From assembly GCA_030390025.1 (NCBI GenBank), contig JASTWF010000088.1, positions 248,001 through 312,000 of the forward strand: 64,000 bases of DNA, read 5' to 3'. Under the pieces are notes generated by a model, which worked only from the letters and a program-made list of their open reading frames with translations, was not told the origin of the DNA and searched no databases. This document shows positions 1-63,356 of the stretch, in pieces; the first letter of the stretch is position 1, and the number at the start of each line of letters is the position of its first letter. The DNA comes from Squalus acanthias (lineage: Eukaryota). The position numbers and the translations under genes are program-made.

Positions 1-1387
1 CCACAATCCTTTGCGCGGTGGCCTCAAGGGGGTCCACCGGCAGGAAGGTCCCGCCCACGGTGAGCCCCTTCTCGATGGCCAGGGACACCGCCCGCTCCGA
101 CCCCAGGAAGAACACAGCCTTGCCGTACATTTTAGAGGCGGCGACGATGGCTGAAGGGCCGACAACCCCAGCCATGGCTTTAACGCACGCCTCTATAGTC
201 ATGTTGGGGTGAGTGTAGCTCTTGACCCCATTCTTCCTCGTAAGGAGGGTAAAAGGTGACGGGGTAACAGGAGGACTCGTGGCTGCGGCCGTGGCCGCGG
301 CTGCCACGCTCGCATACGTCCTCGCTGCCCCCGCCACCGACGAAGATGTACTCGCCATAATGGAGGGTTCTTTAAGGGCTACACTCACCCCAAGTCACAG
401 GCCTGAAGGTGTTAATGGCCTTGGTTTTTTTTTCCCTGAGCAGAGGGAGCTCTTAAATTGAAGGCACACCTCTCCCTTTAGTTGATTGAATTGGGAGAGG
501 GGCCTTCTCCCCTCTGCTCAATGGGTATTTAATAAAAAGTTAATTGAGGTGCCTCTTAGAGAGAGAGGCAGAGAGAGACAGAGACAAAGAGAGAGAGAGA
601 GGAGGTAGGAAGGAGGGAAGCCGCAAGGGCAGGGTCGCCACTCAGGATGGTGGGTGGGTGGGTGGGTGGGTGTTGGCAGGGGGTGCACTCTCCGATGTAA
701 TAAAAGTCTTTGGTGGTGGTGGTCTTCTGGTGGGGGGAGAAGATGTCTTCACCTGGGACAGCTGGAGATGCCCAGGCTCAGTCCTGCACCAGGTCTTAAC
801 GATGCCCAATTGGATTAAATTAATTGGGGAACTTCACCTAGGCAGCTCCAGCTGTCCCAGGTCAGGCAATGGGAAAGGGGTGTTTAATATGGTGTGTGCG
901 GCCTAGCTTTTACAAAAGCCACACACACACACACACACCCCTTGGATGTTCCGGCCTTCTTCTTTTCTTCTTTCCTCCCCCCACCTACAAAACAAAGTCT
1001 CTGGGAGAGTGCCCCAGAATCACACCCACCTGTAGCTGTTGTTCTTTCCTTCCTCCTCCTTCCAAACAGTTGATGGTTGTTTTGTTGTTTTCTCCCCTCT
1101 CTCCCTCTCCTAAAATGGAGGCCAATTGAGGAGGCAGTGTGGAAAGGCCTCTCCTCTGGTGTTAATGGCCTTGGCCTTTCTTTTCTTATCTTTCTCCTCT
1201 CCTGTCCTCTCTCTCCAGGCACCTCAGTAGTGGTTGTTGGTTGTTGGTGGTGGTCTGCTGCCTGGTCTCCTTCTCCTTCTCCTCTTCCTGCTCACAGAGA
1301 CCACCACTCTGCTGCTGCTGCTCCTTCGTCAGCAGCTCCGAAAGCTTGTGATTTCAAATAAAGCTGTTGGACTATAACCTGGTGTTG
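1..1387 (-). mobile_element. Tx1-clade non-LTR retrotransposon, copy A (5' UTR and start of ORF1; runs off window)
   Basis: 1-540 is near-identical to 7180-7720 (period about 7179 bp). Joined head-to-tail to copy B at AACCTGGTGTTG (1376-1387). Confidence 0.9.
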
Positions 1388-1454
1388 ATCTTTTTGGTTT
1401 GTCAAATCAAAATTTACTGTAAATCAATTAAAACTTTAAATGAAACTTAACAAA

Positions 1455-4400
1455 TCAAATCAAAATTTGGAAGTCCGGGGTGACGATGCACTCCAGTCCC
1501 CGCGGCGCCCACCGGTCACGGAAAAACTCAAGCGTGCCGGCGGACACCGCGTGCTCCATCTCCAGGGCCACCCGGGCGCGAACATGGCCGCGGAAGAGAG
1601 GCAGGCAATCGGGCCGAACGACCCCCTCGACCGCCCGCTGCCTGGACCAATTAATGGCTTTCTTGGCCAGGCCCAGGAGCAGTCCTACGAGGAGGTCCTC
1701 CGACCTACCCGCTCCCCTCCGCACCGGGTGACCGTAGATCAGGAGCGTGGGGCTGAAGTGCAACCAGAAATTGAGGAGCAGCCCCTTCAAATAATGAAAG
1801 AGGGGCTGCAACCTCTCACATTCAACATAAATGTGATAAACGGACTCCTCCAGGCCGCAAAAATGGCAAGCAGCCTGGGAGTCCGTAAACCTACTTAAAA
1901 TCCTATTGCACGGGACTGCTCCGTGCAACACCCTCCAGGCCAAGTCCCCAATAGAACAAGGGAAGACTCCCGCGTAGAGAGCCTTCCAATGGGGACCTTC
2001 GCCTCCGCCGGACGGCAGGATGGTACGCCAAGGCGTGTCCGGACGGCAGACGAAGATGGCAAAGTGGAGAGTGTGCAGGAGCAGCCCGTACAGGAAACGC
2101 CTCCGTGCGGATTGAAAGGGCACGGAGGGCATTTCTCCGAGAAGGCTCAAGTGGTGAGGCGGCGGCTCCCGAGGGAGGATTCGGGGCCGGGCGCCGATAA
2201 GGAATTCCGTCCGAACGGGGGTCAGTTCGGACGGGATCGCCCCACGTGCTTGAGCCTCCTCGACACACCTAGTGGAGACGGGGCCCAGTGCCACTTTTAG
2301 CGACTCGATGGCTTTGACCGCGAGCCGGACGTTGACCCAAGACATGCGCCTCGCCAACTCCTCCGGCGCCATCCAGCCCGCTCCTCCGCCATCGAGCAGG
2401 TCCCCGACTCTGGTCACCTTACCGGGCACAGCCCTGCCCTCCGCCAGCCAGCCGAACCCGCGGTCGTGGTGGTGCGGATTCCTGAACAGCGGCTCCCGAA
2501 GGACGGCCGCCGCTCCTGACGGGGGAGAACTGCGCTCGGAGGCGACGCTGTTCCAAACCCATAGCAGTTCCTGGTAGAAGACAGGCAGCTCCCGCAGGCT
2601 GGCACGCGTGCCACCCACTCTCACAAACAGGAGCTGCGTGTCGTAATTGAGGCCGTGCAGCTGGCGGAAGAAATACGTCGCCAGCGCACGCCACCTAGGA
2701 GGATTCTCCACGTACAGGTATCTCTGCAGCGTCTGAAGACGGAAAGTCGCCGCCTGGGTGCGAAGGCACACCAGCGCCTGACCGCCCTCCCTAAGCGGGA
2801 GACTCAAAACCGCGGCAGAGACCCAGTGCTTCCTTTTGTCCCAGAAGAAGTCGACGAGCTTCTTCTGCATCTTGGCGACAAACGCAGGGGGAGGGATCAA
2901 AGTGATCAACCGGTACCACAACATGGCGGCCACCAGCTGGTTTATGACCAGCGCTCGACCCCTGTAGGACAACACTCGGAGCAGTCCTGTCCAGCGCCCT
3001 AGGCGAGCGGTGACTTTGGCCTCCAGCTCTTGCCAGTTCGCCGGCCAGGCGTCCTCGGCCGGGCTGAGGTAGACTCCCAGGTAGAGGAGGTGCGTGGTGC
3101 TCCAGGCGAAAGGCCCGAACTCCTCCGGCAGGGAGTCCACCCGCCATGGGCCCACCAGGAGTCCAGAACATTTCTCCCAGTTGATCTTGGCGGAGGATGC
3201 GTCCGAGTAAATCTGCTGGCATTCTCGCATCCTCCGCAAGTCGACGGGATCCGTGACCGCGAGGAGCACGTCATCGGCGTAAGCCGAGAGGACCACCTCC
3301 ACGCCCGGCCCTTGCAGAGCCAGTCCCGTCAACCTCTTCCGCAAGAGGCGCAGGAAAGGCTCCACGCAAACGGCGTATAACTGACCGGACATGGGGCATC
3401 CCTGACGCACCCCCCTCCCGAAGCGAAGGGGCGCCGTCAAAGACCCGTTAACTTTAATGAGACACTCCGCGGCGGCGTACAGAAGTCGGATCCGGGCGAC
3501 GAAATGCGTCCCGAACCCGAATGCGCGCAGAGTCCCGAAAAGATACTCGTGATCCACCCTGTCGAACGCCTTCTCCTGATCCAGGGAAAGGAAGGCGACC
3601 GACAGACCAGCCCTCTGGGAATGGTGGACCAGGTCCCGGACCAGATGGATGTTATCGTGGATACTCCGGCCCGGGACCGTGTAGGACTGGTCGGGGTGGA
3701 TCATGCGGGCCAGCACGGTGCCAAGGCGAGCAGACATAGCCCTGGCGAAAATTTTGTAGTCCGTGCTGAGGAGGGAGACCGGGCGCCAGTTCTTAAGTAG
3801 GCGGAGATCGCCCTTCTTGGGCAGCAGGACGATGACCGCCCTGCGCCAAGAGAGGGGCATCTCCCCGGTCGCCAGACTTTCCCCCAGGACCCGCGCGTAG
3901 TCGTCCCCCAAGACGTCCCAGAACGCCCTGTGGAACTCCACGGTCAGCCCGTCCAGCCCCGGGGACTTGCCCCTCGAGAGCTGGCGCAGGGCGCCGGTCA
4001 GCTCCGCCAGGCTTAGCGGAGCTTCTAAATTCTCGGCGCCCTCCGGGCCGACCTTCGGCAGGTCCTCCCACAAAACTCTGCGCGCATCCTCGCTGGACGG
4101 ATCCGAAGAGAACAGAGCCCCGTAATAGGCCCGGGCCTCCGCGCTGATGCCCTCCGGATCCGAGACCAGAGATCCGTCGTCGGCCAGCAGCCCCAAGAGC
4201 TGCTTACGGACCCCCCGTCTTTTTTCCAGCGAGTAGAAGAAGGGGGAGCCGCGGTCCAGGTCCCGCAGGAACTGGATCCGCGACCTCACGTACGCGCCTC
4301 GGGACCCGACCAGCTGCAGGTCCTTCAGCGCGCCCTTCTTCTCTTCGTACACCTTCCGCAGGGCCGGGTCCTCGACGACTTGACCGAGACGGGACTCCAG

Positions 4401-5354
4401 GTCGAGCACTTCTTTCTCCAATCGCCCGACCCGGGCCTCCCGCCTCTTGGTCGACCCCTTCGCGTACTCCTGACAGAAGACGCGGACGTGAGCCTTGCCC
4501 ACGTCCCACCATAGCCTCAAGGAGGGGAAGCCTCCCCGCTTCCTTCTCCAGTCGGCCCAGAACCGGCGAAACGAATCCCGGAACCGCGCGTCCTCCAGCA
4601 GCAGGTTGTTAAAATGCCAGTACGCGGACCCCCCCCGCGCGCGCAGCGGAGCGAGCTCCGCCCACACCAGGTGGTGGTCCGTGCACGGCACCGGCCGCAT
4701 GGAAGCCGCCGGAACGCAGGAGACGTACGCCCGGGAAATGTAAAGGCGGTCGATTCTGGACCTTCCTCCTCCAGACCTCACGCTCGTGAAGGCGCTGGAG
4801 TCGGGATGGAGATTTCGCCAGACGTCCACCAAGTCGAAGGACCCGACCAGGTCCCGCAACTTCTCCATCGCCGCCGGGCTTCGCGGGGGACCCGACCGGT
4901 CCCGCGCCTCGAGGGTACAATTGAAATCCCCCCCGAGGATGACGCACTCGCCCACGTCGATGGAGCCCAGAAGAGCGGACACTTCTCCGAAGAAGCGCAC
5001 TTGCTGCGCACCGGTCCGGGGGGCGTACACGTTCACTAAATGGAGCGGCACGCCTCCCAGGCGAACAGTGACCTGGAGCAAGCGGCCCGGCACGTGCTCC
5101 TTGACCCTCAAGATCTCCGGCTGAAAATGCGGGGCCAGCAAGACAGCCACCCCGCAGGAATTGTTGGAGAGGTGACTCATGCTGACCCCTCCTTGCCACT
5201 CCAGGAGCCACGTGGCCTCGTCTCCCGGAACGGTGTGGGTTTCTTGCAGGAAGCACACCGCATATTTCCCGTCCCGAAGGACCGAGAAGTTATTGAATCT
5301 ACGGCGCGCCTCCCTGCTGCCGTTGATGTTGAGGCTGGCTATGGTTATCTTCAT
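1455..5354 (-). CDS. Tx1 ORF2: AP endonuclease + reverse transcriptase + C-terminal zinc finger (intact, about 1300 aa)
   Basis: Motifs SLNING, LQETH, GGDFN, RIDRLYI and TDHH (APE); KSPGLDG, WRPVSLL, DQEKAFD, GVRQGCPMS and AYADD (RT); CHFC...H..VEC at the C-terminus. Confidence 0.93.
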   Translation of the reverse strand: MKITIASLNINGSREARRRFNNFSVLRDGKYAVCFLQETHTVPGDEATWLLEWQGGVSMSHLSNNSCGVAVLLAPHFQPEILRVKEHVPGRLLQVTVRLGGVPLHLVNVYAPRTGAQQVRFFGEVSALLGSIDVGECVILGGDFNCTLEARDRSGPPRSPAAMEKLRDLVGSFDLVDVWRNLHPDSSAFTSVRSGGGRSRIDRLYISRAYVSCVPAASMRPVPCTDHHLVWAELAPLRARGGSAYWHFNNLLLEDARFRDSFRRFWADWRRKRGGFPSLRLWWDVGKAHVRVFCQEYAKGSTKRREARVGRLEKEVLDLESRLGQVVEDPALRKVYEEKKGALKDLQLVGSRGAYVRSRIQFLRDLDRGSPFFYSLEKRRGVRKQLLGLLADDGSLVSDPEGISAEARAYYGALFSSDPSSEDARRVLWEDLPKVGPEGAENLEAPLSLAELTGALRQLSRGKSPGLDGLTVEFHRAFWDVLGDDYARVLGESLATGEMPLSWRRAVIVLLPKKGDLRLLKNWRPVSLLSTDYKIFARAMSARLGTVLARMIHPDQSYTVPGRSIHDNIHLVRDLVHHSQRAGLSVAFLSLDQEKAFDRVDHEYLFGTLRAFGFGTHFVARIRLLYAAAECLIKVNGSLTAPLRFGRGVRQGCPMSGQLYAVCVEPFLRLLRKRLTGLALQGPGVEVVLSAYADDVLLAVTDPVDLRRMRECQQIYSDASSAKINWEKCSGLLVGPWRVDSLPEEFGPFAWSTTHLLYLGVYLSPAEDAWPANWQELEAKVTARLGRWTGLLRVLSYRGRALVINQLVAAMLWYRLITLIPPPAFVAKMQKKLVDFFWDKRKHWVSAAVLSLPLREGGQALVCLRTQAATFRLQTLQRYLYVENPPRWRALATYFFRQLHGLNYDTQLLFVRVGGTRASLRELPVFYQELLWVWNSVASERSSPPSGAAAVLREPLFRNPHHHDRGFGWLAEGRAVPGKVTRVGDLLDGGGAGWMAPEELARRMSWVNVRLAVKAIESLKVALGPVSTRCVEEAQARGAIPSELTPVRTEFLIGARPRILPREPPPHHLSLLGEMPSVPFQSARRRFLYGLLLHTLHFAIFVCRPDTPWRTILPSGGGEGPHWKALYAGVFPCSIGDLAWRVLHGAVPCNRILSRFTDSQAACHFCGLEESVYHIYVECERLQPLFHYLKGLLLNFWLHFSPTLLIYGHPVRRGAGRSEDLLVGLLLGLAKKAINWSRQRAVEGVVRPDCLPLFRGHVRARVALEMEHAVSAGTLEFFRDRWAPRGLECIVTPDFQILI

Positions 5355-5379
5355 CTCAGAAGCATAGTGCAACCTCTAC

Positions 5380-7537
5380 CTAACGGAGGGGAGGGAGGGC
5401 GGTCACTGACGACCGCCACTCCCTCAGCAGCCCAGTGTGGAACGTCTTGAGCCGACGCAGCTCGAGCCGGCCAACGTCCTTGTCCGCGCCCATGATTTTA
5501 ACGGCGGCGCGGACGGACACGACGAGCAGCGTCAGCTCCGACCATTTGTCGAGGGCCAGCCGGATCTTCTTGTGACGACCCTGGCTCATGGCCATAAAAT
5601 CCCGGAGTTCCCCTACGGGGATGAGGGGAGAGTCGGTGAAGGGCACGAGGGCGTCCATCGCCTCGCTGCCGATGGACTCCAAATCGTCCTCGTTGCCCCC
5701 CACCGAGTCCCCGTCCTCCTCCGGGAGGTCGTCACCGGCGGCCAACCCATCCGTCACACAGGGTGCAGCGAACGGCTCGGCCGCACCGGCCGGCCCCGCC
5801 TCCGTCACGATCCCACCCCCAGGATCGGTGGCAGAGGAGTCCACCCTGGGCTCCTTCAGGGGCGCCGGGCCGGGAGGCGGCGGCGGCAGTTCGGGGCCCC
5901 CCCCCCGCCTCAGGCGCCGGGGCGACCGGAGAAACCGGGGAGAAAATAATCCCAAATTCCTCCAGCACGTCCGGCGCCAACAACAGAGACGGAGTCAGGG
6001 GGCTTTCCGTCTCCCCGCCACCAACCTCCGACCCAGCAGGCTGGGGATTGCTACACTCCTCCACCAGGTCGAGCAGTCCCTGGGAGATGTCTGGGTTATA
6101 AAAGGCGGGCTCGGCTTCAGCCTCTTTGGCCTCGCCCGCCCCAGTCCCCAGGACGCCCGACCCGGCGAGGAGCAACGGTTCCGGTACTACATTTCCCTCC
6201 GCGGGTTGTTCCGCGCCCCCCTCCACGGGCAGGGTCTCTTCCCCATCCCCGGGAGGCACAGGTCGGACAGACTCGTCTGTCTCACCCTCCCGAGGGACAG
6301 ACGACCCCTGCCGATCGCGCGCGACGATGACGGTGGTGGGGTGGGGCGCAGCACCCGCGGCGGGCGACTGCCCCCCTTTTGCGGAGGGACCTTCCTCCTC
6401 GCAGTCCTCCTGCTGGGGGCGGAGCTTTCTTTTTAACAAGTTGGGGCCCGGAGAGGGGGAGGCCTCCATGTCTGCTGGGGCCTCCCTCTCTGCCCCCTTC
6501 CGACGACTGGGTTTCTTGGGCCCCTCGGGCCCGAGCCCGGCCGCAGGTCTTAATTCAGCTGCCTCAGCAGTTGCGGTCACGGTCGCGGGCCCGGGCACGA
6601 GGACCCCCCCAGTCTCATGCGTCCCGACCAACTCCGCGATATACTCGGGCGTGAGTTCTGTCAATTCCGATGTTTCCTCCGCGAGGGGATCCGCCCTTAG
6701 GTGTTTAGTTTTCCTACGCGCCTTCCTTCCCCCCGGACGCTCTCCCTCCTCCCCGCCGGAGGCCGTGGTGGTGTTGGCCTCCGATTTCGACCGCGCATCC
6801 GTCGCCGTCGACGCGCGGACAGTATCAGGGGGAGGGGGGGCGGCGGCGCCAACCCCGGCCGCGCCAGGTGTCGTGGCGGCCTTGGAGGCGGGGCAGTTTT
6901 TGCGGACGTGCCCCACCTCCTTACAGGCGTAGCACCGCGCGCCGTCCGAGGTCCAGAAGACGCGGTGGGCGGTCCCCCCGTGGAGCACCGTGAACGCGCC
7001 GTCCGCGTCCTCCTCCCGCGCCAGCCGGACGAAAAGCTGGCGCCGGAAGGAGAAGACGTGCCGAAGGCTGGCTTCCCGGAAGCCGAGCGGGATGGGTGTG
7101 ATCCCCGACCTCACCTCCCCCAGTTGACGTAGGTGGGGGAGGAGGAGCTCACCCGGAACAAAGGGCGGGACGTTGGAAACCACAATCCTTTGCGCGGTGG
7201 CCTCAAGGGGGTCCACCGGCAGGAAGGTCCCGCCCACGGTGAGCCCCTTCTCGATGGCCAGGGACACCGCCCGCTCCGACCCCAGGAAGAACACAGCCTT
7301 GCCGTACATTTTAGAGGCGGCGACGATGGCTGAAGGGCCGACAACCCCAGCCATGGCTTTTACACACGCCTCTATAGTCATGTTGGGGTGAGTGTAGCTC
7401 TTGACCCCATTCTTCCTCGTAAGGAGGGTAAAAGGTGACGGGGTAACAGGAGGACTCGTGGCTGCGGCCGTGGCCGCGGCTGCCACGCTTGCGTACGTCC
7501 TCGCTGCCCCCGCCACCGGCGAAGATGTGGTCGCCAT
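5380..7537 (-). CDS. Tx1 ORF1 (gag-like, CCHC zinc knuckle), with an apparent frameshift in the C10 run at 5897-5906
   Basis: CYACKEVGHVRKNC knuckle and VSNVPPF motif. The probable C-terminal helical segment (LRDFMAMSQGRHKK...) lies in the adjacent frame. Confidence 0.8.
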
Positions 7538-8574
7538 AATGGAGGGTTCTTTAAGGGCTACACTCACCCCAAGTCACAGGCCTGAAGGTGTTAATGGCCT
7601 CGGTTTTTTTTTCCCTGAGCAGAGGGAGCTCTTAAATTGAAGGCACACCTCTCCCTTTAGTTGATTGAATTGGGAGAGGGGCCTTCTCCCCTCTGCTCAA
7701 TGGGTATTTAATAAAATGTTAATTGAGGTGCCTCTTAGAGAGAGAGGCAGAGAGAGACAGAGACAAAGAGAGAGAGAGAGGGGGCAGGAAGGAGGGAAGC
7801 CGCAAGGGCAGGGCCGCCACCCAGGATGGTGGGCGGGTGGGTGCCGGCAGGGGGGTGCACTCTCCGATGTAATAAAAGTCTTTGGTTGTGGTCTTCTGGT
7901 GGGGGGAGAAGACGTCTCCACCTGGGACAGCCGGAGATGCCCAGGCCCAGTCCCGCACCAGGTCCCAACGATGCCCAATAAGATAAAACCAACCGGGGAC
8001 TTCACCTAGGCAGCTCCAGCCGTCCCAGGTCAGGCAATGGGAAAGGGGTGTCCAACATGGTGTGTGCGGCCCAGCCTCCACAGAAGCCACACACACTCAC
8101 ACACACACCCCCTAGATGTTCCGGCCCTCCTCCCCTCCTCCCTCCTCCCCCCACCCACAAAACAAAGTCTCTGGGAGAGTGCACCAGAACCACACCCACC
8201 CGCAGCTGCCGCTCCCCCCCTCCTCCCTCCCTCCAAACAGATGATGGACGTCCCGTTGCCCTCTCCCCTCTCTCCCCCTCCCAAAATGGAGGCCAATCGA
8301 GGAGGCAGTGTGGAAAGGCCTCTCCTCCGGTGCCCGACGGCCCCGGCCTTCCCCTCTCATCTTTCTTTCTCCTCTCCTGTCCTCTCTCTCCAGGCACCCC
8401 AGTTGTTGTGGTCGTTGGTTGTTGGTGGCGGCCCGCCGCCCGGTCTCCCCCTCCCCCTCCTCCTCCCGCCCACAGAGACCACCACTCCGCCGCTGCTGCT
8501 TCAGCTGCTCCTTCGTCAGCAGCTCCGAAAGCCCGCGACCTCAAACAAAGCTGTTGGACAACAACCTGGCGTTG

Positions 8575-8627
8575 TGCGACTTCTCATTTTTGTCCACCCC
8601 AGTCCCACACCGGCATCTCCGCATCAT
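8575..8627 (+). mobile_element. Remnant of Penelope-like terminal sequence (downstream half of the Tx1 target)
   Basis: TGCGACTTCTCATTTTTGTCCA...CCGGCATCTCC.CATCAT matches the reverse complement of about 63358-63402. Confidence 0.85.
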
Positions 8628-11587
8628 AAATCAAACATGGCCACAGTAAATACTAATTCTAATAGGTCTAAGAGCGTTAAAAAAACAAGCCTGAAAGCTT
8701 TGTGTCTTAATGCAAGGAGCATTCCGAACAAGGTGGATGAATTAGCTGCGCAAATAGAGGTAAACAAATATGATTTGATTGGGATTACCGAAACATGGCT
8801 CCAGGGTGGCCAAGGCTAGGAACTCAACATCCAGGGGTACTCAATATTCAGGAAAGATAGGCAAAAAGGAAAGGGAGGTGGGGTAGCATTGCTGGTTAAA
8901 GAGGGGATTAACACAATTGAAAGGAAGGATATTAGCTCTGATGATGTGGAATCTGTATGGGTTGAACTGAGAAATAACAAGGGGCAGAAAACATTAGTGG
9001 GAGTGATATATGGACCTCCAAACAGTAATGCGGAGGTTGGGGATGGCATTAAAAGGGAAATTAGAGAAGCGTGCAATAAGGGCACAGCAGTCATCATGGG
9101 TGACTTTAATCTACATATAGATTGGGCTAACCAAATTAGTAACAATACTATGGAGGAGGAATTCCTGGAGTGTTTACGGGATGGTTTCCTGGACCAATAT
9201 GTCGAGGAACCAACCAGAGATCAGGCCATCTTAGACTGAGTATTATGCAATGAGAAAGGATTAATTAGCAATATTGTTGTGCGAGGCCCCTTGGGTCGGA
9301 GCGATCATAATATGATAGAATTCTTCATTAGGATGGAGGGTGAAGTAGTTGACTCAGAGACTGGGGTCCTGAATTTAAATAAAGGAAACTATGATGGTAT
9401 GAGGTGCGAGTTGGGTAGGATTGATTGGGGAATGTCACTCAAAGGGTTGACGGTGGATAGGCAATGGCAAACATTCAAAGACCGCATAGACGAACTACAG
9501 AATTTGTTCATCCCAGTTTGGCATAAGAATAAAACAAAAAGGTTGACTCAACCGTGGCTAACAAGGGAAATTAGGGATAGCATAAGATCCAAGGAGAGGG
9601 CATATAAATTGGCCAGAAAAAGCAGTAACCCTGAGGATTGGGAGCAGTTTAAGATTCAACAAAGGAGGACAAAGGGATTAATTAAGAAGGGGAAAATAGA
9701 ATACGAGAGTAAGCTTGCAGGGAACATAAAAACTGACTGTAAAAGCTTTTATAGATATGTGAAGAGAAAAAGATTAGTGAAATCAAGCATAGGTCCCTTG
9801 CAGTCAGAATCAGGGGAACTTATAATGGGGAACAAAGAAATGTCAGTCCAATTAAATACATATTTTGGTTCTGTCTTCACAAAGGAGGACACAAATAACC
9901 TCCCAGAGATGTTGGGGAACATAGGGTCTGATGAAAGGGAGGAACTGAAAGAAATCAGTATTTGTAGGGAAATGGTGTTAGGGAAATTGAAGGGATTGAA
10001 GGCCGATAAATCCCCAGGGCCTGATAATCTACATCCTAGGGTACTTAAGGAAGTGGCCCTAGAAATAGTAGATGCATTGCTGATCATCTTCCAACATTCG
10101 ATGGAATCTGGAACAGTACCTATGGATTGGAGGGTAGCTAATGTTACCCCACTATTCAAAAAGGGTGGTAGAGAGAAAACGGGGAATTACAGACCTGACA
10201 TCGGTAGTGGGGAAAATGCTAGAATCCATTATAAAAGATGTAATAGCTGAGCACTTGGAAAACAGTGACGGGATCGGACAAAGTCAACATGGATTTACAA
10301 AAGGTAAATCATGCTTGATTAATCTACTGGAATATTTTGAGGATGTAACTGGTAAAATAGATAAGGGAGAACCAGTGGATGTGGTGTATTTGGACTTCCA
10401 AAAGGCTTTTGATAAGGTCCCGCATAAGAGATTAGTGTGTAAAGTTAAGGCACATGGGATTGGGGGCAAGGTATTGACTTGGATAGAGAACTGGTTGGCA
10501 GACAGAAAGCAAAGAGTTGGAATAAACGGGTCTTTTTCCGAGTGGCAGGCAGTGACTAGTGGGGTACCGCAGGGATCGGTCCTTGGACCCCAGCTATTCA
10601 CAATATATATTAATGATCTAGACAAGGGAACTAGATGTAATATCGCCAAGTTTGCAGACGACACAAAACTGGGTGGGCGCGTGTGCTGCGAGGAGGATGC
10701 CGAGAAACTCCAGGATGATTTGGACAGGTTGGGTGATTGGGCAGAAGCGTGGCAGATGCAATACAACGTGGATAAATGCGAAGTTATCCACTTTGGTGTC
10801 AAAAACAGAAAGGCAGATTATTATCTGAATGGCAATAGATTGGGAGACGGGGAAGTGCAACGAGACCTGGGTGTCCTTGTGCACCAGTCGTTGAAGGTAA
10901 GTATGCAGGTGCAGCAGGCGGTTAAGAAGGCAAATGGTATGTTGGCCTTCATAGCGCGAGGGTTTGAGTACAGGAACAAGGATGTTTTGCTGCAGTTGTA
11001 CAGGGCCTTGGCGAGACCACACCTTGAGTACTGTGTGCAGTTTTGGTCGCCTTATTTGAGGAAGGATGTTCTTGCCATGGAAGGAGTTCACCGAAGATTC
11101 ACAAGGCTGATACTTGGGATGGCAGGAATGACGTATGAAGAAAGATTGGGTCGATTGGGCTTATACTCGCTGGAGTTTAGAAGAATGAGAGGGGATCTCA
11201 TTGAAACTTATAAAATTCTGACAGGACAGGACAAACTAGATGCAGGAAGGATGTTCCCGATGCTCGGGGAGTCCAGAACCAGGGGTCACAGTCTAAGGAT
11301 AAGGGGTGAGCCATTTAGCACAGAAATGAGGAGGAATTTCTTCACCCAGAGAGTGGTGAACCTGTGGAATTCTCTGCCACAGAAGGCAGTAGAGGCCAAT
11401 TCATTAAATTGATTCAAGAAGGAGTTGGATATATTTCTTAAGGGTAAAGGGATCAAGGGAAACGTATGGGGAGAAAGCAGGGACAGGGTACTAAATTTGG
11501 ATGATCAGCCATGATCGCATTAAATGGCGGAGCAGGCTAGCGGGGCCGAATGACGTACTCCTGTTCCTATCTTCTATGATTCTATGA
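8628..11587 (+). mobile_element. CR1-clade LINE (ORF2 APE-RT, disrupted by stops and a frameshift)
   Basis: Motifs LNARSI, ITETW, GDFN, KSPGPD, LDFQKAFD, GVPQGSVLGP and KFADD; short repeated tail TTCTATGA. Confidence 0.9.
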
Positions 11588-11589: not shown

Positions 11590-11946
11590 AGAGGCACTCG
11601 GGCTGAATGACCCACTCCACCCGTCAGCAGCATCTAACCTGGACCTGTGAATGGCCACATTGGCCGGGCCCAGGAGCAGTCCCACAAAGTGATCTCCCGG
11701 CTTGCCCTCCTCCCTCCACACCGGGTGACCAAAGATCAGGAGGGTGGGACTGAAGTGCAGCCAGAAATGGAGGAGCAGCCCCTTCAAATAGTGGAAGAGG
11801 CTGCAACCCCTCACACTCCATATATACATGGAGCACAGACTCCTCCAGGCTGCAGAAAAGGCAGGCGGCCTGGGAGTCCGTGAACCTGCTTAAAACCTTA
11901 TTGTACGGGACTGCTCAGTGCAACACCCTCCAGGCCAATTCCCCAA
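11590..11946 (-). mobile_element. Old degenerate Tx1-family ORF2 C-terminal fragment
   Basis: Translates to LFHYLKGLLLHFWLHFSPTLLIFGHPV, homologous to copy B at about 1600-1950. Confidence 0.8.
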
Positions 11947-12782: not shown

Positions 12783-14435
12783 GACCGCAGTTAGACCGGC
12801 TCCGGGGGAGGGAGAGAGACCGGAGTTAGACCGGCTCCAGGGGAGGGAGAGAGACCGGAGTTAGACCGGCTCCGGGGGAGGGAGGGAGCCCGGAGTTAGA
12901 CCGGCTCCGGGGGAGGGAGAGAGACCGGAGTTAGACCGGCTCCGAGGGAGGGAGAGACCGGAGTTAGACCGGCTCCGGGGGAGGGAGAGACCGGAGTTAG
13001 ACCGGCTCCGGGGGAGGGAGAGAGCCCGGAGTTAGACCGGCTCCGGGGGAGGGAGAGAGACCGGAGTTAGACCGGCTCCGGGGGAGGGAGAGAGAGACCG
13101 GAGTTAGACCGGCTCCGAGGGAGGGAGAGACCGGAGTTAGACCGGCTCCGGGGGAGGGAGAGACCGGAGTTAGACCGGCTCCGGGGGAGGGAGAGAGACC
13201 GGAGTTAGACCGGCTCCGCGGGAGGGAGAGACCGGAGTTAGACCGGCTCCGGGGGAGGGAGAGAGACCGGAGTTAGACCGGCTCCGGGGGAGGGAGAGAG
13301 ACCGGAGTTAGACCGGCTCCGGGGGAGGGAGAGAGACCGGAGTTAGACCGGCTCCGCGGGAGGGAGAGACCGGAGTTAGACCGGCTCCGGGGGAGGGAGA
13401 GAGACCGGAGTTAGACCGGCTCCGAGGGAGGGAGAGACCGGAGTTAGACCGGCTCCGGGGGAGGGAGGGAGAGACCGGAGTTAGACCGGCTCCGGGGGAG
13501 GGAGGGAGACCGACCGGAGTTAGACCGGCTCCGGGGGAGGGAGGGAGACCGACCGGAGTTAGACCGGCTCCGGGGGAGGGAGGGAGACCGACCGGAGTTA
13601 GACCGGCTCCGGGGGAGGGAGGGAGAGAGACCGGAGTTAGACCGGCTCCGGGGGAGGGCGAGGGAGAGAGAGAGACCGGAGTTAGACCGGCTCCGGGGGA
13701 GGGCGAGGGAGAGAGAGAGACCGGAGTTAGACCGGCTCCGGGGGAGGGCGAGGGAGAGAGACCGGAGTTAGACCGGCTCCGGGGGAGGGAGGGAGAGAGA
13801 GAGACCGGAGTTAGACCGGCTCCGGGGGAGGGAGGGAGAGACCGGAGTTAGACCGGCTCCGGGGGGGGAGAGACAGAGACCGGAGTTAGACCGGCTCCGG
13901 GGGAGGGAGGGAGAGAGACCGGAGTTAGACCGGCTCCGGGGGAGGGCGAGGGAGAGAGAGAGACCGGAGTTAGACCGGCTCCGGGGGAGGGAGGGAGAGA
14001 CCGGAGTTAGACCGGCTCCGGGGGAGGGAGGGAGAGACCGGAGTTAGACCGGCTCCGAGGGAGAGAGAGAGAGACCGGAGTTAGACCGGCTCCGAGGGAG
14101 GGAGAGACCGGAGTTAGACCGGCTCCGGGGGAGGGAGGGCGAGACCGGAGTTAGACCGGCTCCGGGGGAGGGAGGGCGAGACCGGAGTTAGACCGGCTCC
14201 GGGGGAGGGAGGGCGAGACCGGAGTTAGACCGGCTCCGGGGGAGGGAGGGCGAGACCGGAGTTAGACCGGCTCCGGGGGAGGGAGGGCGAGACCGGAGTT
14301 AGACCGGCTCCGGGGGAGGGAGGGCGAGACCGGAGTTAGACCGGCTCCGGGGGAGGGAGGGCGAGACCGGAGTTAGACCGGCTCCGGGGGAGGGAGGGCG
14401 AGACCGGAGTTAGACCGGCTCCGGGGGCGGGAGGG
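12783..14435. repeat. G-rich minisatellite, about 33-40 bp unit (GACCGGAGTTAGACCGGCTCCGGGGGAGGGAGA), roughly 45-50 copies
   Basis: Directly visible; starts just after the exon 1 donor. Confidence 0.97.
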
Positions 14436-18300: not shown

Positions 18301-18904
18301 TCTTTCACCATTCAGTGAAACTGCCAGCGATGTCATTTTAACTCTCTTCCTACTTCACCCTCTAAGATCACCTCTTGCATCTTCTCCTTTCCAGGCTGAA
18401 AATCCCAAGTCTTTCCTCAGAACTCAACCCCCTGACAGTGGATCAGCCTCATGGTTCCTCTTTGCAATGCCCCCAGCACATGACTGTCTCTTGTCTGTGC
18501 CAGAACTTGGGATTAAATCACAATTGTTCCAGGCCCAGCCTAGATCTTCTATAGGTTAGCAGAAACAGGTTTAAACATATTCGCCCAGATCTTGCTGGAG
18601 TGGTGCATCTGAGTGCCCCATTAGACTTTTTCCTGCATTCTTCAGCTCAATTTTTTTGTGCTGCAAATTGTTGGAAGTGCGAGCTAATATCTGGGTGGTG
18701 AGAGCATGGTGCATGGGCTCTCTCTGAATAGCGGGACTAACAGTCTATCTCCTTAACCGATTGACATTTAAGGAGTGAAAGAGATGGGGTGAATTAGTCC
18801 CATTCCAGAGACTTGAGCACAAAAATCTAGGCTGACACTCCAGTATAGTGCTGAGGGAGTGCTGCACTGTCGAGGTGCCATCTTTCAGATGAGGGCTTTG
18901 TGTG

Positions 18905-20987
18905 TTGTGGGTTTGGCGGGGGGCTCAGTGTCATGGGTTTGGCGCGGGGGGGGTGGGCTCAGTGTCATGGGTTTGGCGCGAGGGGGGGTGCGCTCTGTCA
19001 TGGGTTTGGCGCGGGGTGGGGGTGGCTCAGTGTCCTGTGTGCGGGGGGGGGGCTCAGTGTCCTGTGTGTGTGTGGGGGGGTTCAGTGTCCTGTGTGTGTG
19101 GGGGGGTTCAGTGTCCTGTGTGTGTGGGGGGGCTCAGTGTCCTGTGTGTGTGGGGGGGCTCAGTGTCCTGTGTGTGTGGGGGGGCTCAGTGTCCTGTGTG
19201 TGTGGGGGGGCTCAGTGTCCTGTGTGTGTGGGGGGGTGGGGCTCAGTGTCCTGTGTGTGTGGGGGGGGGGCTCAGTGTCCTGTGTGTGGGGGGGGGGGGG
19301 CTCAGTGTCCTGTGTGTGTGGGGGGGGGGGGCTCAGTGTCCTGTGTGTGTGGGGGGGGGGGCTCAGTGTCCTGTGTGTGTGGGGGGGGGGGGCTCAGTGT
19401 CCTGTGTGTGTGGGGGGGGGGGGCTCAGTGTCCTGTGTGTGTGTGGGGGGGGGGGGGGGCTCAGTGTCCTGTGTGTGTGTGGGGGGGGGGGGGGGGGGCT
19501 CAGTGTCCTGTGTGTGTGGGGGGGGGGGCTCAGTGTCCTGTGTGTGTGGGGGGGGGGGGGGCTCAGTGTCCTGTGTGTGGTGGGGGGGGGGGCTCAGTGT
19601 CCTGTGTGTGGGGGGGGCGGGGGGGCTCAGTGTCCTGTGTGTGGGGGGGGGAGGGGCTCAGTGTCCTGTGGTGGGGGGGGGGCTCAGTGTCCTGTGAGTG
19701 GGGGGGGGCCTCAGTGTCCTGTGTGTGTGGGGGGGTGTGGCTCAGTGTCCTGTGTGTGTGTGGGGGGGGGCTCAGTGTCCTGTGTGTGTGTGGGGGGGGG
19801 GGCTCAGTGTCCTGTGTGTGTGTGTGGGGGGGGCTCAGTGTCCTGTGTGGGGGGGGGGTGGGGGGCTCGGTGTCCTGTGCGTGTGTGTGGGGGGGGGTGG
19901 GGGGGCTCGGTGTCCTGTGTGTGTGTGTGGGGGGGGGGGGGGGGGGGCTCAGTGTCCTGTGTGTGTGGGGGGGGGGGCTCAGTGTCCTGTGTGTGGGGGG
20001 GGGGGGGGGGCTCAGTGTCCTGTGTGGGGGGGGGGGTGNNNNNNNNNNNNNNNNNNNNNNNNNNNNNNNNNNNNNNNNNNNNNNNNNNNNNNNNNNNNNN
20101 NNNNNNNNNNNNNNNNNNNNNNNNNNNNNNNNNNNNNNNNNNNNNNNNNNNNNNNNNNNNNNNNNNNNNNNTGTGGGGGGGGGGCTCAGTGTCCTGTGTG
20201 TGGGGGGGGGGGGGGCTCAGTGTCCTGTGTGTGTGGGGGGGGGGGGCTCAGTGTCCTGTGTGTGGGGGGGGGAGGGGCTCAGTGTCCTGTGGTGGGGGGG
20301 GGGGCTCAGTGTCCTGTGAGTGGGGGGGGGCCTCAGTGTCCTGTGTGTGTGGGGGGGTGTGGCTCAGTGTCCTGTGTGTGTGGGGGGGGGGGGGGGCTCA
20401 GTGTCCTGTGTGTGTGTGGGGGGGGGGGGGGGCTCAGTGTCCTGTGTGTGTGTGTGGGGGGGGCTCAGTGTCCTGTGTGTGGGGGGGGGGGGGGCTCAGT
20501 GTCCTGTGTGGGGGGGGGGGTGGGGGGCTCAGTGTCCTGTGTGGGGGGGGGGGGTGGGGGGCTCAGTGTCCTGTGTGGGGGGGGGGGTGGGGGGCTCGGT
20601 GTCGTGTGTGGGGGGGGGGGGGGTGGGGGGCTCGGTGTCCTGTGCGTGTGTGTGGGGGGGGGTGGGGGGGCTCAGTGTCCTGTGTGTGTGGGGGGGGGGG
20701 GGGGCTCAGTGTCCTGTGTGTGTGTGGGGGGGGGGGGGGGCTCAGTGTCCTGTGTGTGTGTGTGGGGGGGGCTCAGTGTCCTGTGTGTGGGGGGGGGGGG
20801 GGGCTCAGTGTCCTGTGTGGGGGGGGGGGTGGGGGGCTCAGTGTCCTGTGTGGGGGGGGGGGTGGGGGGCTCAGTGTCCTGTGTGGGGGGGGGGGTGGGG
20901 GGCTCGGTGTCGTGTGTGGGGGGGGGGGGGGTGGGGGGCTCGGTGTCCTGTGCGTGTGTGTGGGGGGGGGGTGGGGGGGCTCGGTGT

Positions 20988-21027
<40 letters not shown>

Positions 21028-21700
21028 GGGGGGGGGGGGCTCTGTGTCCTGTGTGTGTGGGGGGGGGCTCAGTGTCCTGTGTGTGTGGGTGGGGTGGGGG
21101 GCTCGGTGTCCTGTGTGTGGGGGGGGGGGCTNNNNNNNNNNNNNNNNNNNNNNNNNNNNNNNNNNNNNNNNNNNNNNNNNNNNNNNNNNNNNNNNNNNNN
21201 NNNNNNNNNNNNNNNNNNNNNNNNNNNNNNNNNNNNNNNNNNNNNNNNNNNNNNNNNNNNNNGTGTGGGGGGGGGAGGGGCTCAGTGTCCTGTGGTGGGG
21301 GGGGGGGCTCAGTGTCCTGTGAGTGGGGGGGGGCCTCAGTGTCCTGTGTGTGTGGGGGGGTGTGGCTCAGTGTCCTGTGTGTGGGGGGGGGGGGCTCGGT
21401 GTCCTGTGTGTGGGGGGGGGGGGGCTCGGTGTCCTGTGAGTGGGGGGGGGCCTCAGTGTCCTGTGTGTGTGGGGTGGGGGGCTCGGTGTCCTGTGTGTGG
21501 GGGGGGGGGGCNNNNNNNNNNNNNNNNNNNNNNNNNNNNNNNNNNNNNNNNNNNNNNNNNNNNNNNNNNNNNNNNNNNNNNNNNNNNNNNNNNNNNNNNN
21601 NNNNNNNNNNNNNNNNNNNNNNNNNNNNNNNNNNNNNNNNNNNNNNNNNNNNNNNNNNNNNNTGTGAGGGGGGGGGCTCAGTGTCCTGTGTGTGTGCTTG
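18905..21700. repeat. G/T-rich minisatellite (CTCAGTGTCCTGTGTGTG(G)n) with three assembly gaps
   Basis: Directly visible; N-runs at about 20039-20171, 21132-21262 and 21512-21662. Confidence 0.97.
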
Positions 21701-21760
21701 GGGGTGTGGTTTATGCGGTAGTTTACGGACCCCCCCTCTCTCTCTCTCTCTCTCTCTCAG

Positions 21761-22024
21761 GGGCTCACTCCGAGATTGAGATTTTCGGATGTGAGTTTAA
21801 CAGCACCGGGGACTGGATCTACACTTACCAGTATGTCTATGACCAAGAACTGATCTCGTACTACGACTATAAGCGGAAGAAGTTCATCGTGGTGAAGGAC
21901 TGGATGAAGGGGAATGTCGACAGATGGAACGCAGGCGGCGATGCGGAAGCGCAGTACCAGTCCGGGACCACTTTCTGTGAGACCAACATTCCGGTCATTT
22001 CCGAATACGTGCTGCCCCGGCAAG
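21761..22024 (+). CDS. MHC class II beta exon 2 (beta-1 peptide-binding domain)
   Basis: (G)AHSEIEIFGCEFNSTGDW...YDQELISYYDY...DRWN...FCETNIP...LPRQ. 264 nt, AG/GT, phase 1-1, Cys pair and NST glycosylation site. Confidence 0.95.
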
Positions 22025-24051: not shown

Positions 24052-24137
24052 GTAAGAGATGTTACACAACCTAGTACAGCTTTGGAATGGGTACAGGGAC
24101 TTTACACTGCAGGTGTAGTGCCCAGAATTGGACACAC

Positions 24138-24816
24138 TGGCCCGTAATTTCCGATAGGAGCTTCCTGCGTGTGGATGCCTCCTATCGGGGGAAAAAATCT
24201 ATGCCCTTACCTGAGGGCTCCCGAGGTCCAGACTCTTCTGCTCCTGGGCGCCTCCTGGTGTGCGCGTGATCACATGGGCCAGGCGAGTCAATGGGAGAAG
24301 GGAATCCCCCTTCATACGTTTGACAGAAGTCAAAAGTATGAATGGGATCACTGAAAAAAGACATCAAAACATATTAAAAAATTTTAAAGTCACATTTTTT
24401 AAGAGTTAAAATTGCATTAAATTAAATTTTTTAAAAACTTAATTTTTTGAGAAAAATAATTAGTTTTTTACGGGGCTAAAAATAAACTTTTTAAAGTATT
24501 TTTGAATACTTGAGTATTATAAGTGGGGAAAAAAAATTTAATTTTTTTTTTTAACTCTTATGCTGATAAAAGTAGGTCTTACGCCTGCTTTTACCAGGTA
24601 AGATTTTTAAGGGATTTCAGCAGGCGGAGGTTCTGCAGAAAGTGGAACCATCCATCCGCAGAGGCCCTTCTCCAGGGCAGGCGGAGGATCTGTCGAGGAT
24701 TCTTGACAGATTGGAAGTTCCGGTTTTCAGCGCATGCCTGAAACCGGCACTTGCAAGGTCCCTACGGTTGTGTACACAGCTCGTACACACCCGTAGGGAT
24801 TGGAAATTACGGGCCA
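24138..24816. mobile_element. MITE (non-autonomous DNA transposon, possibly PIF/Harbinger-type) inserted in a CR1 fragment
   Basis: 15-bp TIRs TGGCCCGTAATTTCC / GGAAATTACGGGCCA; AT-rich core; CR1-like sequence resumes on both sides. Confidence 0.7.
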
Positions 24817-24899
24817 ATATTTCAGCTGAGGCCTAACCAGTTATTTAAAGGATTAGCATAACTTTCTTGCTTTTGTACTCTGCCTATAACCTGGTGTTG

Positions 24900-27499
24900 C
24901 TCTTTTTGGTTGACAAATCAAAATTTACTGTAAATCAATTAAAACTTTAAATGAAACTTAATAAATCAAATCAAAATTTGGAAGTCCGGGGTGACGATGC
25001 ACTCCAGCCCCCGCGGCGCCCACCGGTCGCGGAAAAACTCAAGCGTGCCGGCGGACACCGCGTGCTCCATCTCCAGGGCCACCCGGGCGCGAACATGGCC
25101 GCGGAAGAGAGGCAGGCAATCGGGCCGAACGACCCCCTCGACCGCCCGCTGCCTGGACCAATTAATGGCTTTCTTGGCCAGGCCCAGGAGCAGTCCCACG
25201 AGGAGGTCCTCCGACCTACCCGCTCCCCTCCGCACCGGGTGACCGTAGATCAGGAGCGTGGGGCTGAAGTGCAACCAGAAATTGAGGAGCAGCCCCTTCA
25301 AATAATGAAAGAGGGGCTGCAACCTCTCACACTCAATATAAATGTGATAGACGGACTCCTCCAGGCCGCAGAAATGGCAAGCAGCCTGGGAGTCCGTAAA
25401 CCTACTTAAAATCCTATTGCACGGGACTGCTCCGTGCAACACCCTCCAGGCCAAGTCCCCAATAGAACAAGGGAAGACTCTCGCGTAGAGAGCCTTCCAA
25501 TGGGGACCTTCGCCTCCGCCGGACGGCAGGATGGTACGCCAAGGCGTGTCCGGACGGCAGACGAAGATGGCAAAGTGGAGAGTGTGCAGGAGCAGCCCGT
25601 ACAGGAAACGCCTCCGTGCGGATTGAAAGGGCACGGAGGGCATTTCTCCGAGAAGGCTCAAGTGGTGAGGCGGCGGCTCCCGAGGGAGGATTCGGGGCCG
25701 GGCGCCGATAAGGAATTCCGTCCGAACGGGGGTCAGTTCGGACGGGATCGCCCCACGTGCTTGAGCCTCCTCGACACACCTGGTGGAGACGGGGCCCAGT
25801 GCCACTTTTAGCGACTCGATGGCTTTGACCGCGAGCCGGACGTTGACCCAGGACATGCGCCTCGCCAACTCCTCCGGCGCCATCCAGCCCGCTCCTCCGC
25901 CATCGAGCAGGTCCCCGACTCTGGTCACCTTACCGGGCACAGCCCTGCCCTCCGCCAGCCAGCCGAACCCGCGGTCGTGGAGTTGCGGATTCCTGAACAG
26001 CGGCTCCCGAAGGACGGCCGCCGCTCCTGACGGGGGAGAACTGCGCTCGGAGGCGACGCTGTTCCAAACCCATAGCAGTTCCTGGTAGAAGACAGGCAGC
26101 TCCCGCAGGCTGGCACGCGTGCCACCCACTCTCACAAACAGGAGCTGCGTGTCGTAATTGAGGCCGTGCAGCTGGCGGAAGAAATACGTCGCCAGCGCAC
26201 GCCACCTAGGAGGATTCTCCACGTACAGGTATCTCTGCAGCGTCTGAAGACGGAAAGTCGCCGCCTGGGTGCGAAGGCACACCAGCGCCTGACCGCCCCT
26301 CCCTAAGCGGGAGACTCAAAACCGCGGCAGAGACCCAGTGCTTCCTTTTGTCCCAGAAGAAGTCGACGAGCTTCTTCTGCATCTTGGCGACAAACGCAGG
26401 GGGAGGGATCAAAGTGACCAACCGGTACCACAACATGGCGGCCACCAGCTGGTTTATGACCAGCGCTCGACCCCTGTAGGACAACACTCGGAGCAGTCCT
26501 GTCCAGCGCCCTAGGCGAGCGGTGACTTTGGCCTCCAGCTCTTGCCAGTTCGCCGGCCAGGCGTCCTCGGCCGGGCTGAGGTAGACTCCCAGGTAGAGGA
26601 GGTGCGTGGTGCTCCAGGCGAAAGGCCCGAACTCCTCCGGCAGGGAGTCCACCTGCCATGGGCCCACCAGGAGTCCAGAACATTTCTCCCAGTTGATCTT
26701 GGCGGAGGATGCGTCCGAGTAAATCTGCTGGCATTCTCGCATCCTCCGCAAGTCAACGGGATCCGTGACCGCGAGGAGCACGTCATCGGCGTAAGCCGAG
26801 AGGACCACCTCCACACCCGGCCCTTGCAGAGCCAGTCCCGTCAACCTCTTCCGCAAGAGGCGCAGGAAAGGCTCCACGCAAACGGCGTATAACTGACCGG
26901 ACATGGGGCATCCCTGACGCACCCCCCTCCTGAAGCGAAGGGGCGCCGTCAAAGACCCGTTAACTTTAATGAGACACTCCGCGGCGGCGTACAGAAGTCG
27001 GATCCGGGCGACAAAATGCGTCCCGAACCCGAATGCGCGCAGAGTCCCGAAAAGATACTCGTGATCCACCCTGTCGAACGCCTTCTCCTGATCCAGGGAA
27101 AGGAAGGCGACCGACAGACCAGCCCTCTGGGAATGGTGGACCAGGTCCCGGACCAGATGGATGTTATCGTGGATACTCCGGCCCGGGACCGTGTAGGACT
27201 GGTCGGGGTGGATCATGCGGGCCAGCACGGTGCCAAGGCGAGCAGACATAGCCCTGGCGAAAATTTTGTAGTCCGTGCTGAGGAGGGAGACCGGGCGCCA
27301 GTTCTTAAGTAGGCGGAGATCGCCCTTCTTGGGCAGCAGGACGATGACCGCCCTGCGCCAAGAGAGGGGCATCTCCCCGGTCGCCAGACTTTCCCCCAGG
27401 ACCCGCGCGTAGTCGTCCCCCAAGACGTCCCAGAACGCCCTGTGGAACTCCACGGTCAGCCCGTCCAGCCCCGGGGACTTGCCCCTCGAGAGCTGGCGC
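24900..27499 (-). mobile_element. Tx1 copy C, 5'-truncated (RT to 3' end), in intron 3 of MHC IIB
   Basis: Nearly identical to 1388-3988, with one extra C near 26296 causing a frameshift. TSD AACCTGGTGTTG at 24888-24899 and 27500-27511. Confidence 0.93.
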
Positions 27500-27522
27500 A
27501 ACCTGGTGTTGTGCGACTTCTC

Positions 27523-28570
27523 TATTTATAAAGCCAAGGATCCCATATGCGTTTTTTAATAGCCTAATCAACTTGTCCTGCACCTTCAAAGATTTGCGTA
27601 CATACACCTCCAGGTCTCCCTGCGCCCTCTTTAAAATTATACCATCTTTAAAATTATACCATCAGTTCATGTTGCCTCTCCTCGTCTTTGCAAAACTATT
27701 CACTTTACACTTGTTAAATTTTGTCTGCCCATTTCACCAGTCTATGTCCTTCTGAAGTCTGTTACTATGCTCCTCACTGTTTACTGCATTTCCAAACTTT
27801 GTCATCTGCAAACTTTGAAATTATGCCCTGTATACCCAAGTTCAGGTCATTAATACATCAAAGAACAGTAATCCTAATGCTGACCCCTGGGGAACACCAC
27901 TGTATTCTAGCCTCCAGTCTGAAACAACCATTCACCACTACTCTCTGCCATCTGTCCCTTAACCAATTTTGTATCCATGCTGCCACTACCCAATTAATCC
28001 CATGTACTTCAATTTGCTAACAAATCTATTATGTGGTACTTTGTCAAACACCTTTTGCAAGTCTATATACACATCAACTGCACTCAATCAAGTTGGTCAA
28101 ACAATTTGCCTTTAACAAATCCATGCTGGTTGTCATTTATTAATCCATGTTTTTCCAAGTGAATTTATTTTGTCTTGTAGTATTGTCTCCTAAAGTTTCC
28201 CCACCACAGACATTAGGCTGACTGATCTGTAGTTACCTGATTTATTCCCCCTCCTTTCTTTGAACAGGGGTGTAACATTTGCAACCCTCCAGTCCTCTGG
28301 CACCACCCCATATCTAAGGGGATTGGAAGATTGTGACCAGAGCCTCTGCAATTTCCACCCTTGCTTCCTTCAGCAACCTAGGATGCATCCCATACTGACC
28401 GGGTGACCTTTCTACTTTGAAGACTGGCAACCTTTAAGTACCTCCTCTTGATCTATTCTTGTATTACCCAATTTCTCTACTGCCTCCTCCCTTACTGCTA
28501 CATTGGCAGCATCCTCTTTAGTGAAGACGGATTCAAAGTACTCATTTAGTACTTTGGCCATGCCCTCTGC
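27523..28570 (-). mobile_element. Degenerate CR1 LINE (continues 24075-24884; more at about 29110-29810)
   Basis: RT-like remnants (reverse complement of KFADD, GVPQGS, DLQKVFDKVPH); sequence is contiguous across the Tx1 and MITE insertions. Confidence 0.75.
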
Positions 28571-63355: not shown

Positions 63356-63356
63356 T

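Follow-up and report, generated by a model that had tools for sequence, protein, structure and literature searches.

Families of the Tx1 clade of retrotransposons without long terminal repeats (non-LTR) have been reported to target Tx1D, Mariner, LTR and Harbinger elements, U2 genes and microsatellites (PMC4494074, PMC4640811, PMC6719617; here and below, cited papers are compared through the excerpts available to us). Parasitism on another parasite is thus no novelty in this clade, and in crocodilians tandem SINEU-3 copies have been found around the target site duplication (TSD) (PMC4494074). Here we analyzed a stretch of 64,000 nucleotides from Squalus acanthias (contig JASTWF010000088.1, positions 248,001 to 312,000; hereafter the window), for which a sequence-only reading had proposed a Tx1 element that inserts into the terminus of a Penelope-like element (PLE). 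A genome-wide pattern count bore this out: 884 of 987 3' ends defined by a tail pattern (~90%) sit on the Penelope target. The element also forms mosaic tandem arrays, and the 5' end of one copy in the window carries the signature of RNA editing.

Targeting of a Penelope-like terminus

The element lies on the minus strand of the window in three copies, A (1-1387), B (1388-8574) and C (24900-27499). The features referred to in the text are the following (ORF, open reading frame; RT, reverse transcriptase; APE, apurinic endonuclease-like; UTR, untranslated region; LINE, long interspersed element).

1..1387, minus strand: copy A, 5' part; full length 7174 bp, extending past the left window edge in an array of at least 4 units
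1320-1332: inverted half of the hammerhead motif, preceding the 54-nt target copy of A
1333..1386, plus strand (Penelope sense): 54-nt target copy at the 5' end of A, which is the site adjoining the 3' end of B
1388..8574, minus strand: copy B, full-length Tx1-clade LINE of 7187 bp; final array unit toward the Penelope tail
1455..5354, minus strand: ORF2 of B, 1299 aa, with APE endonuclease, RT and zf-RVT; ATG at 5354, frame open
5732..7537, minus strand: ORF1 with CCHC knuckle; stop-to-stop frame of 613 aa in B and A
7782..8570, minus strand: A-to-G hyper-edited tract in the 5' UTR of B; 91 of 228 A altered, with changes scarcer after a 5' G
8520..8573, plus strand: edited 54-nt target copy at the 5' end of B, element-borne and RNA-templated
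8575..8627, plus strand: Penelope 3' end and optional tail beside B, unedited
24884..27522, minus strand: copy C, 5'-truncated, with flanks; TSD at 24888-24899 and 27500-27511
63358..63471, minus strand: empty Penelope terminus; hammerhead-like motif at 63471-63441, intact target at 63416-63390
63715..64000, plus strand: Penelope ORF remnant running from the RT C-terminus to GIY-YIG past the window edge; the terminus at 63.4 kb is its inverted arm

The junctions that the sequence-only reading had placed at 1387/1388 (B) and 24899/24900 (C) were found as claimed. CTATAACCTGGTGTTG ends at 1387 and 24899, respectively, and ACCTGG(C/T)GTTG-TGCGACTTCTC is located at 8564-8585 (B) and 27501-27522 (C). 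The same reading called the two copies near-identical, in keeping with 99.1% identity across 2618 bp, and gave C a TSD of 11-12 bp; it is 12 bp (AACCTGGTGTTG), or 11 bp if the nick falls one base further left. An intact ORF2 was confirmed for B and not for C, where a 1-bp insertion at 26296 breaks the frame. The reading overlooked the arrays and the edited tract of B. The 3' flank of B is no Penelope copy; it is the 5' end of the tandem copy A, which over 1-1387 is ~90% identical to the 5' region of B (7180-8574). Copy C lies within a 27-bp Penelope remnant that is itself inside a dispersed repeat.

With its two ORFs, its APE, RT and zinc motif and its grouping with Tx1L, the element is a young Tx1-clade non-LTR retrotransposon. 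ORF2 matched PF03372 and PF00078 above the Pfam cut-off and PF13966 below it, and ORF1 matched PF00098, the CCHC knuckle. The ORF1 frame of 613 aa in B compares with 730 aa in three copies from other arrays. The best full-length named relative of ORF2 was Xenopus laevis Tx1L (a UniRef YTX2 entry), with 652 of 1299 residues identical (50%). The two fell in one starred clade of a FastTree tree that contained 23 of 56 proteins (the query and 55 matches) and no named L1 outgroup. Partial matches to ORF2 with 69-75% identity came from cartilaginous fishes. ORF2 is intact in 32 of the 44 full-length copies examined, which speaks for recent activity. Contigs from two other organisms (runs X7, X12 and X15) matched ORF2 at ~99% or more, so the family is either common to close relatives or recently transferred; the tables shown held no element-target junction among the ORF2-covering contigs of these organisms. 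An old, ~80% identical fragment of the same lineage is present at 11592-11946 of the window and matches 1603-1951. One off-target copy (L159, C1109:644000-652700) is 99% identical to B over its 3' 1.6 kb and far more divergent upstream; with 87% overall identity, a different 5' UTR and an adjoining inverted copy, it is possibly a chimera with a sister family.

Target specificity was assessed in the 3.7-Gb assembly by matching the tail pattern without the target and the tail pattern preceded by CCTGGTGTTS, with array units counted separately. The reversed-pattern controls gave 0 matches in the assembly. Among the fetched loci, 28 of the 30 best-scoring and 29 of the 30 position-ordered ones were on target. 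The flanks collected genome-wide are thus predominantly the exact target rather than unrelated DNA, against which stand the ~10% of 3' ends that lack the exact flank. Nor does the recurrent flank belong to the 3' end of the element itself: at two off-target loci (L014 and L102) GTGTTG is duplicated on both sides of the insertion amid unrelated flanks, so these bases are target. The base following GTGTT is G or C at 3' junctions, tracking the tail type, whereas 57 of 57 junctions on the Penelope-tail side have G there, a tally in which overlapping loci recur. We infer from this difference a nick at GTGTT/G (the slash marks the nick), one base left of the boundary given by the sequence-only reading. 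Measured to that point, the TSDs of on-target truncated copies are 11-15 bp. Contigs of run X1, which may be the source sample, join the target to truncation points 1627, 1671, 2036, 2410 and 3100. In L083 the insertion used a secondary site, CCGGTGTT, which lies in the Penelope tail on its reverse strand. In two cases both arms of a short inverted Penelope hold a Tx1 insertion, tail to tail (C2:164562528-164562729, locus L145, and C4:152277702-152277863).

The host repeat is a Penelope-like element, as judged from an ORF with RT and a GIY-YIG-like part, pseudo-LTRs (pLTRs), inverted arrangements and an optional tail. A full copy (L197) has direct repeats, the pLTRs, around a single 919-aa frame with RT (RVT_1), and the target is present in both pLTRs. 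The C-terminal part of the host ORF reached Atlas feature scores of 0.96-0.97 to clusters with 18-27% GIY-YIG members. Core motifs like those of a hammerhead ribozyme, together with stem II, were seen in the pLTR by eye and by fold; the ribozyme and its cleavage are predicted from the hammerhead consensus. From the predicted hammerhead cut it is 40 nt to the insertion point, and the ATG follows ~55 nt after the target. The order hammerhead-then-target in the sequence-only reading stands, and its distance of ~35 nt has to be corrected; likewise, the uninterrupted 30-bp target that it described on the minus strand is present at 63390-63419 rather than at 63392-63421. Two database results weigh against this description of the host: Pfam gave no GIY-YIG match in the Penelope fragment or in the full ORF, and Rfam gave no hammerhead match at E<=1 in 62800-64000. 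A sense-strand hammerhead formed with the inverted motif half in the Tx1 5' UTR was rejected by eye, as stem III is unpaired.

The exact target 27-mer occurs at no fewer than 72,634 sites in the assembly, including sites rebuilt at Tx1 5' junctions. Empty Penelope sites (n = 30) include inverted pairs and have two classes of 3' ends, either directly past GACTTCTC or ~40 nt further. These classes resemble the optional PLE tail, which marks two RT start sites (PMC11167929). Given these end points, the target would be among the first bases that Penelope copies, and it would survive in very short Penelope insertions, of which the 27-bp remnant around C is an example. Among 56,021 first-look candidates genome-wide, the Penelope family includes numerous copies whose open frames reach at least 919 aa, as well as frequent inverted pairs. 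Its 3' ends recur at one position of a dispersed repeat, just before TATTTAT (loci L116, L164 and L181, and 24780-27640 of the window), which hints at a Penelope insertion hot spot.

Rebuilt 5' junctions and mosaic arrays

Many full-length copies bear 43-55 nt of target at their 5' ends. Three classes of 5' ends were found, namely ~55 nt of target plus the inverted hammerhead-motif half, ~43 nt of target, and an ordinary overlap of TSD size. The last class comprises loci L167, L175, L177 and L181, and L171 ends with a small target deletion. The 18 full-length copies among 20 regions do not represent an unbiased share, since loci were chosen for running past 1.5 kb. Of 14 full-length copies, solo or first, with a long 5' target copy, 11 have a target copy unlike their own 3' flank, and the other three share common variants; the segment is therefore usually RNA-derived. 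At C2:68.2 Mb, on the other hand, the 5' target copy fits two rare local variants out to ~55 nt, so that local DNA can also be the template. Whichever the template, RNA or local DNA, the 5' end comes to lie next to a target that has been made intact again. The sequence that the sequence-only reading saw at the 5' junction of B is not a plain TSD; it is part of an element-borne, RNA-edited 54-nt target copy. At L174 the 3' flank has 18 bp of target only. We also considered solo 5' UTR fragments mobilised by Penelope. This idea was unsupported, as 42 of 45 5'-end loci continue to the locus edge; those that stop early are L046 (at an N run), L056 and L184 (edge of a short locus). In unit 6 of the C17 array (L070, 4756-5108), a TSD is followed at once by 350 bp from the Tx1 5' end, with the rest of the element missing.

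Tandem arrays of truncated units were analyzed at seven places (L085, C8, C3256, C2:154 Mb, C3:151 Mb, C3:168 Mb and C5:5.78 Mb); C17 and L083, the latter with its left junction in an inverted Penelope tail, were left out of the counts. Within an array most units share one private truncation point and one TSD, local variants included. The truncation points are array-specific (~160, 245, 268, 312, 485, 800, 955 and 985 nt). In spite of their equal lengths, adjacent units differ in their tails in 31 of 34 pairs across the seven arrays, and in the first 60 nt these 34 pairs have 139 differences, compared to 152 expected for independent copies. Among the 10 pairs of at least 480 nt, 95 differences fall in the 3' halves, where 69 are expected, and 13 in the 5' halves, where 33 are expected. 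Units 1 and 2 at C3:151 Mb have 11 differences in 125 nt and then 0 in the next 840, a pattern matched by 2 of 276 independent pairs. Among full-length neighbors, 10 of 15 pairs show no difference over the first 100 nt or more at the 5' end, versus 2 of 190 independent pairs, and neighbors with identical 5' ends often bear 30-96 substitutions elsewhere. In C8, a variant near the 5' junction arises at unit 10 and is retained by units 11-14 under changing tails.

A common truncation point and TSD combined with new tails would fit fresh reverse transcription that is completed by copying the resident neighbor. In the mechanism that we propose, the ORF2 endonuclease would nick the strand in Penelope sense at ...CCTGGTGTT/GTGCGAC..., a point ~12 nt short of the nearer Penelope 3' end, and the element would insert in antisense by target-primed reverse transcription from that nick. 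Of these, target and orientation are observed. When the RNA has target sequence at its 5' end, the cDNA end may anneal to target sequence directly behind its primer, be extended to the nick and be ligated, which would rebuild the intact site. At an occupied site, cDNA started from a different RNA might switch to the homologous resident copy and copy its 5' junction. The outcome would be a tandem unit with a new tail, the old length and the old TSD. Unequal exchange adds higher-order repeats in some arrays.

Several observations weigh against this reading or limit its reach. The arrays are few and were hand-picked from listed clusters, and their adjacent pairs lack independence. A weak test came from the 100 nt that immediately precede the TSD (16 differences versus 23 expected), and 3 of 8 single-pair tests were non-significant. 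That unequal exchange is also at work is shown by higher-order repeats, found in C17, in C3256 and as an ABAB pattern at C2:68.2 Mb. Moreover, a full-length copy occupies the other junction of the array at C2:154 Mb, so growth is not always one-sided.

The main rival is DNA-level duplication, in which arrays with the same targeting grow only by unequal exchange or slippage of one insertion and tails are replaced later by abortive reverse transcription (3' conversion) at the junction of every unit. It draws on the repeats in C17 and C3256, on near-identical neighbors such as units 2 and 3 of C2998 and on the insertion at the 3'-side junction at C2:154 Mb. It does not account well for the two- and three-unit arrays at L085, C3:168 Mb, C3:151 Mb and C5:5.78 Mb, which have all-different tails without an identical-unit intermediate, nor for the junction-near variant that persists in C8 from unit 10 onward as the tails change. 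Like template switching to a resident copy, this rival requires repeated attack of ORF2 on occupied sites and homology-directed completion, and we regard it as unlikely, though it is the most serious of the alternatives. Ordinary double insertion into the TSD, by which R1 arrays arise (PMC2718515), would have to draw equal lengths from truncation hot spots or from transcripts of truncated units. A pair of neighbors of unequal length, 339 and 313 bp (L095/L096), is such a plain double insertion. The truncation points of the arrays are, however, array-specific and accompanied by array-specific TSD variants, and transcripts of a resident unit would repeat its tail, whereas the tails differ as much as those of independent copies. 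As a general account of the arrays we therefore consider double insertion very unlikely.

A-to-G editing and the proposed overall model

With the column majority of 27 full-length units as the reference, 91 of the 228 A of B within nt 4-773 have become G; each of the other 26 units has 5-22 such changes across its whole length. The fraction edited varies with the 5' neighbor, in the order of preference of ADAR enzymes: U (0.68), A (0.56), C (0.38), G (0.19). The edits cross the target copy of B and end 4 nt from the junction, and the adjoining flank is unedited. Clustered A-to-G change on one strand with depletion after a 5' G is the signature of ADAR-type hyper-editing of RNA before insertion. 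A second edited copy, at L181, is edited over the same interval on another contig and belongs to another 5' class; it is the sole other one among 122 alignments of the 5' region (overlapping loci included). Its 77 edited sites have 53 in common with the 81 of B, compared to a chance expectation of 31, which fits a site preference or a common edited parent. No long internal inverted repeat that could supply an editing duplex was found, the longest in the element being 26 bp. The boundary common to B and L181 suggests, as a guess, that the duplex partner was an antisense transcript over the edited interval.

That the tract is an assembly or sequencing artefact, or ordinary divergence, is marginally less probable still than double insertion. 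The assembly has no other copy above 88% identity to the 5' end of B (next best 86-88%), and contigs of the sequencing runs did not confirm that end. An artefact would nevertheless have to produce a single substitution type on one strand, in a bounded tract with an ADAR-type 5' context beside an unedited flank, and to do so again over the same interval at L181. Least probable of all is hitch-hiking, the spread of a Tx1-bearing Penelope copy by the Penelope machinery without Tx1 target specificity, to which the activity of the Penelope family with its many intact ORFs and the mere 27 bp of Penelope sequence around C could be fitted, but which is contradicted by flanks from different Penelope variants, by TSDs that vary by copy and reproduce local variants, by off-target copies that have only GTGTTG in common, and by the intact ORF2 of those 32 copies.

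The targeting and the structure of the element are real and well supported. The whole model, in which a target-specific Tx1 LINE inserts at the Penelope site, adds tandem units by switching to a resident copy and uses RNAs of which some would have been ADAR-edited over their 5' ~780 nt prior to insertion, appears probable to us from sequence comparison. We are somewhat less confident, though still inclined to favor, its more general form. Here a vertebrate APE LINE would complete its insertion when the cDNA end invades the homologous DNA behind its primer, be it the target copy, for full-length RNAs, or a resident copy, at an occupied site. One insertion would then fix the unit length that unrelated RNAs arriving later extend into a satellite-like array within Penelope termini, and edited RNAs would record the RNA-templated part.

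Elsewhere in the window, decayed LINE copies at 9093-11412 and 43835-50012, presumably CR1/L2-like by resemblance, flank the array and recur through the window. Blocks of tandem repeats at 12783-14441, 18893-21779 and 58959-61453, the last with a period of 81 bp, yield long spurious open frames.

Significance and comparison with known systems

How non-LTR insertions complete their 5' junctions is an open question. In this family ~1000 young 3' ends occupy a single defined site and come with natural markers, namely tail types, local target variants and edited RNA. Because these markers separate bases derived from RNA from bases derived from neighboring DNA, the question becomes directly testable. 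If the model is true, it describes a retrotransposition-driven path from a LINE to a satellite-like array. With this family, the known Tx1 targets also come to include a retroelement terminus. Its insertions fall after the ribozyme motif and before the start codon in the pLTR of an active Penelope, where they could disable Penelope copies. As a compact, intact and sequence-specific vertebrate APE retrotransposon, the element is a candidate for insertion-tool work.

Tx1L of X. laevis likewise inserts into another transposon, Tx1D (PMC4494074, PMC6719617). Compared by ORF2 and target type, the two differ in that the target of Tx1L is a piggyBac-type DNA transposon and that of the present element is the pLTR of an active Penelope-like retroelement. 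The crocodilian Tx1-Mar, Tx1-8_Crp, Tx1-4_AMi and Tx1-9_AMi also prefer transposons (Mariner-N4, LTR elements and Harbinger), and the main text of PMC4494074 has 0 occurrences of a Penelope target for these families. A literature search for a Tx1 element with a Penelope target, for the mosaic-array pattern and for ADAR-edited genomic LINE copies, judged mostly by titles and the starts of abstracts and with Repbase and Dfam outside the comparison, found none described. On the side of the host, PAc of Anolis has the pLTR-ORF-pLTR layout, a hammerhead-like motif and an optional tail of 30-40 nt in common with our repeat, in which, in contrast to PAc, the motif lies wholly upstream of the start codon (PMC11167929).

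R1 of Drosophila is also an APE element. It forms arrays by insertion into its TSD of 14 bp, and its RNA can have target sequence at the 5' end that anneals at the junction. R1A involves the upstream target and a deletion, whereas the present element involves the downstream target and a duplication of 43-55 bp. Truncated units of equal length with different tails, as seen here, were not met in the excerpted R1 account (PMC2718515). The double-insertion tandems that McGurk and Barbash (2018) described as satellite precursors (PMC5932611) are likewise non-LTR and keep the TSD in the junction. In those dimers distinct 5' truncations mark independent insertion, whereas in the arrays described here the truncation is common and the tail differs. 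Set beside these systems, the target alone is a modest addition; what surprises, and can be tested, are the mosaic arrays and the edited copies.

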